A DNA stretch of 64,000 nucleotides from Escherichia coli (GTDB lineage: Bacteria > Pseudomonadota > Gammaproteobacteria > Enterobacterales > Enterobacteriaceae): assembly GCF_003790525.1 (NCBI RefSeq), contig NZ_CP033635.1. The stretch is one strand, 5' to 3'. Positions 25,125 to 28,947 of this stretch are shown here, in pieces (within the stretch, counting starts at the first letter, position 1; each line of letters opens with the position of its first letter). The translations under genes were made by a program, and so were the position numbers. The notes below the pieces were generated by a model. The model made no database searches. It was given only the letters and a program-made list of their open reading frames with translations, and was not told where the DNA came from.

Positions 25125-25375
25125 GAATCCGCTTATTCTCAGGGCGGGGCGAAATTCCCCACCGGCGGTAAATCAACTCAGTTGAAAGCCCGCGAGCGCT
25201 TTGGGTGCGAACTCAAAGGACAGCAGATCCGGTGTAATTCCGGGGCCGACGGTTAGAGTCCGGATGGGAGAGAGTAACGATTCTGTCGGGCATGGACCCG
25301 CTCACGTTATTTTGGCTATATGCCGCCACTCCTAAGACTGCCCTGATTCTGGTAACCATAATTTTAGTAAGGTTT
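25125..25375 (+). ncRNA. FMN riboswitch (RFN element) in the ribB leader
   Basis: Conserved RFN segments agggcggggcgaaattccccaccggcggta ... ccggggccgacggttagagtccggatgggagaga directly upstream of ribB. Confidence 0.8.
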
Positions 25376-26036: not shown

Positions 26037-26068
26037 AAACCGCTGCTTAATTTACTGCCTTAATCAAG

Positions 26069-26105
26069 AAACCGAAGTTGTAGCAGGCTTCGGTTTTTAT
26101 TTTTC
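26069..26105 (+). terminator. ribB rho-independent terminator
   Basis: gaaaccgaag-(loop)-cttcggttt followed by a T run. Confidence 0.6.
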
Positions 26106-26297
26106 CCTGCTATGCAAGATGTTAATTCCGCTTCTCTTTCTATGAGAAAATTTCATTAATATCAGGCATTCTTTTTCATTATGATCAAAATCATATAATT
26201 GTTCCGTTATTATGCGACCATATGAATATATCCGAAAAAGGATATGTGAAATTTATGCGCTAAATGTTTAGTATTGTTAAATATTAAGGGTAAAAGG

Positions 26298-26468
26298 ATG
26301 TTTATCGCCTGGTACTGGATTGTATTGATTGCTCTTGTTGTTGTGGGTTATTTCCTGCATTTGAAACGTTATTGTCGGGCGTTTCGCCAGGACAGAGACG
26401 CACTGCTTGAAGCGCGGAACAAATACTTAAACAGTACGAGAGAAGAGACAGCCGAAAAGGTAGAATAA
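26298..26468 (+). CDS. Small single-pass membrane protein (56 aa), function unknown
   Basis: ORF MFIAWYWIVLIALVVVGYFLHLKRYCRAFRQDRDALLEARNKYLNSTREETAEKVE with an AAGGG SD about 8 nt upstream. Confidence 0.4.
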   Translation: MFIAWYWIVLIALVVVGYFLHLKRYCRAFRQDRDALLEARNKYLNSTREETAEKVE

Positions 26469-26525
26469 GGCTTTAGTGAAGCTGGCAGAAGTTGTCCATG
26501 CGCTGGACAACTTCTGATGTTGCTT

Positions 26526-27299
26526 TTAACCAATTCCCGCCGTTTGTAGCAGCACTAAACTGAATCCCATCACTGACATTCCACATAGTACGCCATAGCT
26601 GGGGTTATTATTAGGGTCAATCTCTTTGGCGAGCGGCATTAATTCATCAACCGAGAGCGCTACCATAATTCCTGCAACCGCCGCCATGATTGCCGCCATG
26701 ACCACCGGGGAAATCATGCTACCGAGGATTAACCACGCCAGCACACCACCAAGAATTTCTGCCAGTCCAGAAATCCCCGCCCAAAGAATCGCGGTGCGTT
26801 TAGACCCCGTTGCCGCGTAAACCGGGCCTGCAACCGCCAGACCTTCAGGAATATTGTGTAACGCAACGGCCAGTGCGATGCCAAAGCCCAGCTCCAGGTT
26901 GCTGCTCGCCGTGACAAAGGTGGCAATCCCTTCCGGGAAGTTATGCAGACTGATGCCGAGAGTGAGCAGAATGGCTGTGCGCTTGATCGATTTTGGCAAC
27001 GGCTGCACCGATTTTTGCATTAAATCCTGCGGATGCGCATGTGGCAACATGCGGTCCAGGCCAAAATAGCCAAGCAGACCGAAGATAAACATTCCATAAC
27101 CCAACACAGGTGACATTCCTTCGGCGGCTAATGCGGCAGGAAGCATTTCCATTAATGAGATGAGCAACATGATCCCCGCCGCAAATCCTAGCGAAAACGC
27201 CAGTAAGCGGTTCGAGGGTTTTTGCCCGAGAACGCCGAGAAACGCGCCAATAAACGTGGCTGCCCCCGCCAGTATGGTCAGAATGAGAGGTACTGACAT
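26526..27299 (-). CDS. zupT: Zinc transporter, ZIP family
   Basis: 257-aa product starting [22 protein letters not shown]... (track ORF is 14 codons longer). Confidence 0.9.
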
Positions 27300-27414
27300 C
27301 GACAACTCCTTATAAATCTTCACCTTCAGGCAGATCGTCAAAATAACTGATGATCATCATCATTGTTATCCGGGTTCTTACTCCGCCGAACAAGCGTATT
27401 GTGAGGATATCAAA

Positions 27415-28275: not shown

Positions 28276-28947
28276 TTAGCCTCTGATGATTTTAAGTGCC
28301 CATGCGCCACTCATAATGACCAGCAGCACCAGACACATACCAAAAGCCAGCATACAAGCCTGAGCCATATTCATAAAATGCCATGGTGGTAGCAGATACC
28401 AGCCTTCAGATTGCTGATACATTTCCACAAACCACTGTTGCGTGCTGCTCAGTGTGACGCCATCAGGAACGATTGGTGCGTCATAGCCACAATCCCCGGT
28501 AGGCTTGAACCAATTTGGTGCCCACTGTGCCAGCGGCAGGTTAAAGGGAAAAGTTGGATCGGTAGAGCAACCCTGTACGCCAAACAGTGAATCGGGATCC
28601 GGATTATGTACTGCATGGTGGATATCGTTCAGTTTGAGCGAAAACTTCAGTCCCAAAATGCTGCCGTAAAATGCCATCACGCAGCCAATTAGCTTTAGGA
28701 TGATGTTCTTTGGGTTGATCGCTGCAACCAATCCTCCAATAACCATCACAAACATGGCGTAGCGAATGTATACACATTGCTCACAGGGTGCCATGTAGAG
28801 ATAGATCTGGAAGAAAGAGTGCGCCAGGATAATTAACGCGCCCATCGCAACGGCCATTAACAACCACAACAAGCGTTGCTCCTGCCATCTGACCAGTGTG
28901 TCAACTGGTGATGTGCGAAGATCTTTCCACATTCCCTTAATACCCAT
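28276..28947 (-). CDS. dsbI: DsbB-like membrane disulfide oxidoreductase
   Basis: 223-aa polytopic ORF with paired cysteines (CEQC; C...C in the periplasmic loop); last gene of the assT operon. Confidence 0.85.

Follow-up and report, generated by a model that had tools for sequence, protein, structure and literature searches.

The open reading frame (ORF) at 26298-26468 of the window, by which is meant the whole stretch of 64,000 nucleotides of Escherichia coli DNA that was analysed, is almost certainly yqiD (b4756) and a real gene, as judged from its match to the K-12 locus and its conservation. The explanation that best accounts for the data overall, to which we would give a probability of roughly 85%, is that YqiD is a genuine, translated small inner-membrane protein that is encoded by an autonomous unit and may act on a partner.

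yqiD is already known: it is named, it is annotated in RefSeq, and it has been shown to be translated since 2018. The initial annotation, in which the ORF was not recognised as a named K-12 protein, was wrong on this point, as the K-12 counterpart is b4756 (YP_009518818.1; RefSeq protein name YqiD) and the window protein is identical, at 56/56 residues, to the K-12 sequence printed in PMC6001520. The same 56-aa sequence was placed at MG1655 3183381-3183551 by VanOrsdel 2018 (Proteomics 18:1700064; PMC6001520), where YqiD is one of 36 small ORFs detected by immunoblotting via a chromosomal SPA tag, and one of 13 that had previously been positive in the tetracycline ribosome profiling of Nakahigashi 2016. 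Ribosome profiling and an epitope-tag fusion had both been suggested as checks in the initial annotation, and both have a positive outcome in these published K-12 data. YqiD-SPA was detected from aerated LB cultures (VanOrsdel 2018, PMC6001520), and expression of yqiD is therefore not strictly anaerobic. In the searchable literature no experiment on the function, localisation, topology or partner of YqiD was found.

In K-12, yqiD occupies the same locus, 3' of ribB and convergent with zupT, and the window is collinear with K-12 3183326-3183836. Across these 511 bp there are 5 nucleotide differences, 2 of which are synonymous changes in the ORF, leaving the protein unchanged. A megablast search with 26040-26530 (5,426 complete E. 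coli genomes) found the ORF labelled "yqiD: protein YqiD" throughout, and strain FDAARGOS_497 matched the region at 100%. As a discovery yqiD matters little, being one of many validated small membrane proteins of E. coli; it does illustrate that genuine small genes can be recognised by reading raw sequence. The features of the locus are collected in Table 1.

Table 1. Coordinates of features at and around yqiD in the window
Feature	Position	Strand	Remarks
ribB intrinsic terminator	26067..26098	+	hairpin of 13 pairs, then T-run; splits ribB from the yqiD unit
Predicted FNR site of Myers 2013, TTGATCATAATGAA	26175..26188	-	9/10 to TTGAT-N4-ATCAA; at FNR ChIP-seq peak
Perfect palindrome TATGAT-N4-ATCATA (TGA-N6-TCA core, CRP/FNR-type)	26180..26195	.	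upstream edge of conserved yqiD unit; binding protein putative
Conserved promoter + leader block	26196..26297	+	holds candidate -10 region 26219-26227 and SD 26286-26290
yqiD coding sequence	26298..26468	+	56 aa + stop; RefSeq 'protein YqiD' WP_000469266.1
Transmembrane (TM) helix, codons 2-22	26301-26363	+	within yqiD; predicted from sequence
Conserved cytoplasmic motif, codons 23-41	26364-26420	+	within yqiD; from dN/dS and predicted topology
Variable tail, codons 42-56	26421-26465	+	within yqiD; dN/dS about 1
Hairpin common to the convergent yqiD and zupT transcripts	26486..26516	.	13-pair stem; candidate bidirectional terminator
zupT (ZIP-family divalent metal transporter)	26526..27299	-	convergent neighbour of yqiD; given as context, same system not implied

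The yqiD frame and selection on its product

The 56-codon ORF is present exactly as the initial annotation described it, running from the ATG at 26298-26300 to the TAA at 26466-26468 and encoding MFIAWYWIVLIALVVVGYFLHLKRYCRAFRQDRDALLEARNKYLNSTREETAEKVE. The plausible Shine-Dalgarno (SD) sequence that had been noted can be identified as AAGGG, 7 nt 5' of the ATG, and the location that had been given, an AT-rich interval between ribB and zupT that begins after the ribB terminator, is borne out by the terminator hairpin, 3' of which lies the AT-rich spacer holding yqiD. An in-frame TTG at 26274, which would give a protein of 64 aa, was considered as an alternative start. Alignment of the upstream regions indicates that its frame is not kept in other genera and is out of frame in most relatives, and the ATG at 26298 is therefore taken as the start of yqiD, as in RefSeq. 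The length of the ORF alone is within what chance produces, with 71 ORFs of at least 20 aa overlapping the surrounding 4 kb.

In a comparison of E. coli, Salmonella, Citrobacter and one more distant relative, dN/dS over codons 1-41 of yqiD is 0.04-0.21, with dS at 1.1-2.4 and hence near saturation, while over codons 42-54 dN/dS is about 1. By these ratios codons 1-41 are under strong purifying selection and the last ~15 codons drift. The conserved stretch consists of the TM helix and the motif KRYCRAFRQDRDALLEAR. When all six frames were compared as a control, the annotated one had a pN/pS of 0.165 and no stops, whereas pN/pS is at least 1.2 in four of the five other frames; the fifth, an antisense frame that shares wobble positions with yqiD, has a low pN/pS yet is full of stops. 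All five alternative frames contain between 25 and 45 stop-containing codon pairs each. Intact YqiD ORFs, of 51-74 aa, were found in 39 species, a count drawn from one genome per species. The conservation and Ka/Ks analysis that the initial annotation had proposed thus comes out in favour of the gene, and the intact frame in 39 species, the pN/pS control and the published immunoblot together establish yqiD as real.

Alignment of 18-22 homologues reveals two conserved blocks, an N-terminal cap (M-F-I-A-W-Y-W) and residues 23-36 (K-R-Y-C-R/K-A-F-R-Q-D-R-D-A-L), within which A28 and R30 are retained without exception, down to the most distant members. In the middle of the helix only hydrophobic character is conserved, and the ~15 C-terminal residues vary. 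Functional constraint on YqiD is thereby narrowed to residues 1-41 and especially to residues 23-36.

The Kyte-Doolittle mean over 19 residues reaches its maximum, 2.43, at residues 2-20, and the tail that follows the helix contains 9 K/R and 7 D/E, in keeping with the single hydrophobic helix and basic/acidic tail reported earlier. No charged residue precedes the helix, and four K/R lie within ten residues C-terminal to it; under the positive-inside rule this uncharged N-terminus and positively charged flank make it very likely that YqiD has an N-out/C-in topology with a cytoplasmic tail of 34 residues. The near-invariant segment K23-L36 (KRYCRAFRQDRDAL) would then lie at the cytoplasmic face of the membrane, and the ~15 residues at the C-terminus would be free to vary. 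With AF2 on the family alignment, YqiD is modelled as a single continuous helix over residues 2-55, the pLDDT being 85-89 for the TM part and 53-72 for the tail. Conservation around this helix shows no single conserved face (conservation moment, p = 0.42-0.74), and the notion of a conserved helical face acting as a packing interface was rejected, as there is no helical periodicity in the conservation. By its size and its one predicted TM helix YqiD falls within the class of small bitopic inner-membrane proteins, that is, those with fewer than about 60 aa and a single predicted TM helix.

Family, alleles and the neighbouring zupT gene

A word-indexed sequence search yielded 108 YqiD-family sequences. 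When 1.84 billion representatives were searched exhaustively with a profile, 24 matches emerged, nearly all of them YqiD-like sequences or fragments of such, and no distant YqiD superfamily was found. The members belong to Escherichia, Citrobacter, Salmonella, Intestinirhabdus, Kosakonia, Phytobacter and Pseudocitrobacter, along with one "Enterobacter sp."; on these searches the family is restricted to eight enterobacterial genera. Scans of YqiD against Pfam and NCBIfam gave nothing above threshold. The match to DUF2621 (E=8e-4, 19.8 bits against a cut-off of 27.7) is driven by the TM segment, as are sub-threshold matches to DUF4381, DUF6526 and NF038143, and none of these is taken as membership. 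A profile search of solved structures produced nothing significant, with UPF0335/GapR at E=0.03. Several Salmonella and Citrobacter homologues carry the NCBI/UniRef source label 'DUF4051', which conveys no function, and the 18 YqiD members searched against a copy of Pfam-A gave no match to DUF4051.

Within E. coli, one of two yqiD alleles is present in about 5425/5426 complete genomes, making yqiD effectively a core gene, and frameshifted alleles are not common. Allele A, the K-12-like form, is carried by about 4,431 genomes and allele B by about 994, among them Nissle 1917 and APEC O2:K1, where its product is annotated only as "hypothetical protein". The two proteins share 66-69% amino-acid identity. 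An estimate of dS between the alleles, ~1.8, comes from just 28 synonymous sites and is hence noisy. Comparison of the loci (window 26189-26543; L007 3873-4236; L012 10413-16106) indicates that the divergence covers promoter, ORF and terminator, over 26189-26543, and ends at the 3' end of zupT; the stem of the common hairpin differs in sequence between the alleles, with pairing kept in both. Allele B is linked to an opposite-strand fimbrial operon of ~5.5 kb inserted between ribB and yqiD. This linkage, and the sharp boundary of the divergence at the 3' end of zupT, suggest that the allele B cassette was imported by recombination. A rare E. coli variant, P0013, joins an N-terminal half of the allele B type (IVLLAGG...CKAFRH) to a tail of the allele A type (EARNKYLNSTREETAEKVE), a mosaic that implies recombination inside the 171-bp gene itself.

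The ribB-ygiD neighbourhood is an insertion hotspot, in which fimbrial operons and assT-dsbL-dsbI are found at different points according to lineage. The window is not K-12: dsbI (28276-28947) adjoins ygiD where K-12 has ygiC, and in the matching strain FDAARGOS_497 dsbL lies beyond dsbI. The fimbrial genes ygiL-yqiGHI, which stand beside ubiK in K-12, are absent from the window.

Adjacency gives weak support to the idea that YqiD serves ZupT as a dedicated accessory or regulatory protein, for example one that tunes Fe2+/Zn2+ uptake on an anaerobic FNR signal; this we regard as unlikely. zupT lies tail-to-tail with yqiD in 37 of the 39 species, the gap ranging from -17 to +75 nt, while ribB is found upstream in just 24, having been displaced elsewhere by a fimbrial operon or by assT-dsbL-dsbI. 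The two convergent genes also have the terminator hairpin in common. ZupT is said to transport Fe2+, a finding attributed to Grass et al. in 2005, and an anaerobic signal would fit with Fe2+ being the prevalent form of iron when oxygen is absent and with the regulation of feoABC by FNR. Against this, insertions would seldom strike a spacer that measures 75 nt at most, and adjacency among such close genera is to be expected anyway. The genes are convergent and hence not co-transcribed, and an identical ZupT protein (WP_001295627.1) stands beside both YqiD alleles in spite of their divergence. Homologues of ZupT, as members of the ZIP family, are moreover far more widespread than YqiD.

Strict co-occurrence of the two genes was not observed. 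A Pseudocitrobacter metagenome-assembled genome (MAG) has an intact yqiD at a locus without zupT and ygiD (assT ... yqiD-like ... ygiC; L054 3001-3156), and in Kosakonia oryziphila yqiD is intact beside a zupT reduced to a fragment of 72 aa, next to which is a remnant of an IS transposase (L047 533-1033); in both cases the view is that of the locus. The guess that yqiD regulates its neighbour, made in the initial annotation, is thus drawn from adjacency and faces two counter-examples.

One further sequence, P0124, is a protein of 125 aa in which ZupT residues 1-71 are fused in frame to a YqiD-like C-terminus. It is known from one short-read contig of 2,029 bp (L013 1499-1876, with the junction at ~1706-1725), on which the normal convergent 3' end of zupT then follows. 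Such an arrangement could have arisen from an inversion that broke within yqiD and zupT alike, or from a chimeric read. For this reason, and because it is confined to a single contig and cuts ZupT short, P0124 was rejected as Rosetta-stone evidence.

The upstream block and a candidate link to FNR

Conservation upstream of yqiD sets in abruptly at the palindrome in Escherichia, Salmonella, Citrobacter and Intestinirhabdus. From there to the ATG, identity between genera is 69-88%, against 26-58% for the 100 nt upstream. The candidate -10 region reads TATATG/TATAGT in relatives. In Kosakonia and Phytobacter the sequence upstream of the homologue is a different one and lacks the palindrome. The gene that lies upstream varies, being ribB in E. 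coli allele A and Citrobacter, the opposite-strand fimbrial operon in allele B and assT-dsbL-dsbI in Salmonella; as the operon stands between ribB and yqiD in allele B, yqiD must be independent of read-through from ribB. On this comparison of genomes yqiD travels as a self-contained unit of palindrome, promoter, leader, ORF and terminator. The unit would comprise a CRP/FNR-type palindrome, a weak sigma70 promoter, a conserved leader of ~70 nt, the SD, the ORF and the hairpin in common with zupT. The cloned upstream region of yqiD has been reported to drive a GFP reporter, the output of which is altered by natural variants (bioRxiv 10.1101/2025.06.10.658842). A simple sigma70 scan gave one weak site, at 26156-26185; this is no more than chance would give, and the site, being 5' of the conserved block, is probably irrelevant.

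Published ChIP data place FNR at this block. Myers 2013 (PMC3688515) reported an FNR peak centred at 3181647 (U00096.2), described as "5' of zupT/ribB" and found with ChIP-chip as well as by three ChIP-seq algorithms, along with a sigma70 peak at 3181649 with values of 395 aerobically and 1002 anaerobically (adjusted p 7e-83), that is, 2.5-fold higher occupancy without oxygen. In Table S6 of that study TTGATCATAATGAA is listed at 3181683 and marked as at an FNR ChIP-seq peak. This sequence occurs once in the window, overlapping the palindrome, and its match was used to fix the offset between U00096.2 and window coordinates. The peak centres then map to ~26224 for FNR and ~26222 for sigma70, some 75 nt before the start codon of yqiD (74 nt in the case of FNR), and FNR is thus bound in vivo at the yqiD promoter region of K-12. 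The target of the FNR peak was given by Myers 2013 (PMC3688515) as "Unknown"; yqiD was not an annotated gene in 2013. An FNR peak accompanied by an anaerobically stronger sigma70 peak some 75 nt 5' of the ATG points to yqiD as an FNR-activated target, and suggests that it is the gene to which these orphan peaks belong, a link that to our knowledge has not been made before. FNR thus probably activates yqiD when oxygen is scarce, with the proviso that the ChIP data carry no strand information. An orphan FNR and sigma70 peak of 2013 thereby gains a plausible target gene, and the lead supplies a concrete condition under which the function of YqiD might be sought.

The sequence motifs themselves are less specific. 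Conservation of the left half of the TTGATCATAATGAA site is confined to E. coli allele A. The palindrome matches the FNR consensus at 8/10 positions (26181-26194), and the CRP consensus is equally close (8/10). FNR-like matches with up to 2 mismatches number 49 in the window, against 35 expected by chance. The palindrome would be at -41.5 to -42.5, a class II position, only if transcription were to start at ~26229-26230. Comparison by eye of the palindrome and leader with consensus sequences for Fur, Zur, PhoP, IHF, ArgR and the LacI family, which is no formal test, produced none that was convincing. The ArcA ChIP supplements list no ArcA peak at the region upstream of yqiD.

Other signals are found nearby. 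A weaker FNR peak at ribB itself, at 3182480, was called by one algorithm only (Myers 2013, PMC3688515), and ribB and yqiC are among the operons that the same study tabulates as differing in expression with and without oxygen, with values of 0.46 and 0.42, from which no direction is read here. Upstream of ribB there is an FMN riboswitch at ~25131-25279, which is annotated in the matching RefSeq record (L001 1592-1740). In the divergent zupT-ygiD promoter region two overlapping FNR-like matches, CTGATGATCATCAT and ATGATCATCATCAT, occupy 27347-27363 with 2 mismatches each; they are probably due to chance, as no ChIP peak is listed there.

The degree of conservation in the leader raises the question of whether the transcript rather than the peptide is what matters, as a regulatory or dual-function RNA or through convergent interference with the 3' end of zupT, the peptide being secondary. 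The block of ~115 nt between palindrome and ATG is 69-88% conserved while synonymous sites in the ORF are saturated, and the leader carries conserved ATGTT(T/A)A repeats. Nevertheless, such a role is very unlikely to be the main one. Protein-level selection is clear in the annotated frame, YqiD protein reaches detectable levels, and the common hairpin should stop both transcripts. A conserved RNA fold in the leader was sought and rejected, the energy being weak (-3.9 kcal/mol) and covariation almost absent (compensatory change at only 2 pairs). The repeats lie within 26262-26304, at 26264-26270, 26274-26280 and, across the start codon, 26298-26304; their period is 10 nt, against 11 nt in the PhoP box. 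A small palindrome is also present in the leader, as TTTAACGTTAAA in most genera and as ATTTA-TGCGC-TAAAT in E. coli allele A.

Proposed mode of action

By analogy with other small bitopic proteins, YqiD seems rather likely to act through a membrane partner. It would most likely bind a larger inner-membrane protein via its helix and the juxtamembrane motif, tuning the activity or stability of that protein; ZupT is one candidate partner among many. The small bitopic modulators of E. coli include AcrZ, MgtS, MgrB and PmrR, which act on AcrB, MgtA, PhoQ and LpxT, respectively, and CydX and CydH/YnhF are subunits of cytochrome bd. Like YqiD, the small bitopic modulators are proteins of fewer than 60 aa with one TM helix, encoded by their own small transcription unit under a global regulator, which for YqiD would be FNR. 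They have no sequence similarity to YqiD, such that the likeness is one of functional class only, and the long conserved charged cytoplasmic segment is a feature of YqiD. MntS differs from YqiD in that it is no TM protein and is regulated by MntR, and there is no sequence similarity between the two. The MntS/MntP system (PMC4361602) is nonetheless a precedent for a small protein that influences transition-metal transport in E. coli. ynhF, like the yqiD region, has an FNR ChIP peak in the data of Myers 2013 (PMC3688515).

A fuller scheme, which must be considered doubtful, would have FNR-activated YqiD bind ZupT, or another anaerobic transporter or respiratory complex, via KRYCRAFRQDRDAL and so retune metal uptake on the shift to anaerobiosis, the protein being a lineage-restricted regulator that arose in the ribB-zupT spacer of some Enterobacteriaceae. 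We infer membrane insertion, topology, control by FNR and action through a partner with a confidence that falls in that order, and a link to ZupT is speculation.

The small size of YqiD, its single hydrophobic helix and its long conserved leader would also suit a membrane-perturbing peptide similar to type I toxins. Such peptides, for example Ibs, Ldr and Hok, are unlike YqiD with its charged tail of 34 residues and its invariant motif. yqiD is, moreover, a single-copy core gene at a fixed position, where neither an antisense RNA gene nor a repeated locus is evident, and detection of the tagged protein is easy in cells that grow normally; a toxin-like role is thus highly improbable. ORFs of 20-60 codons often arise by chance in this region, but the likelihood that yqiD is a functionless frame of this kind is negligible, given the published detection of its product, the retention of the frame across the 39 species and nearly every complete E. 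coli genome, and a combination of low pN/pS and zero stops that is unique to the yqiD frame.
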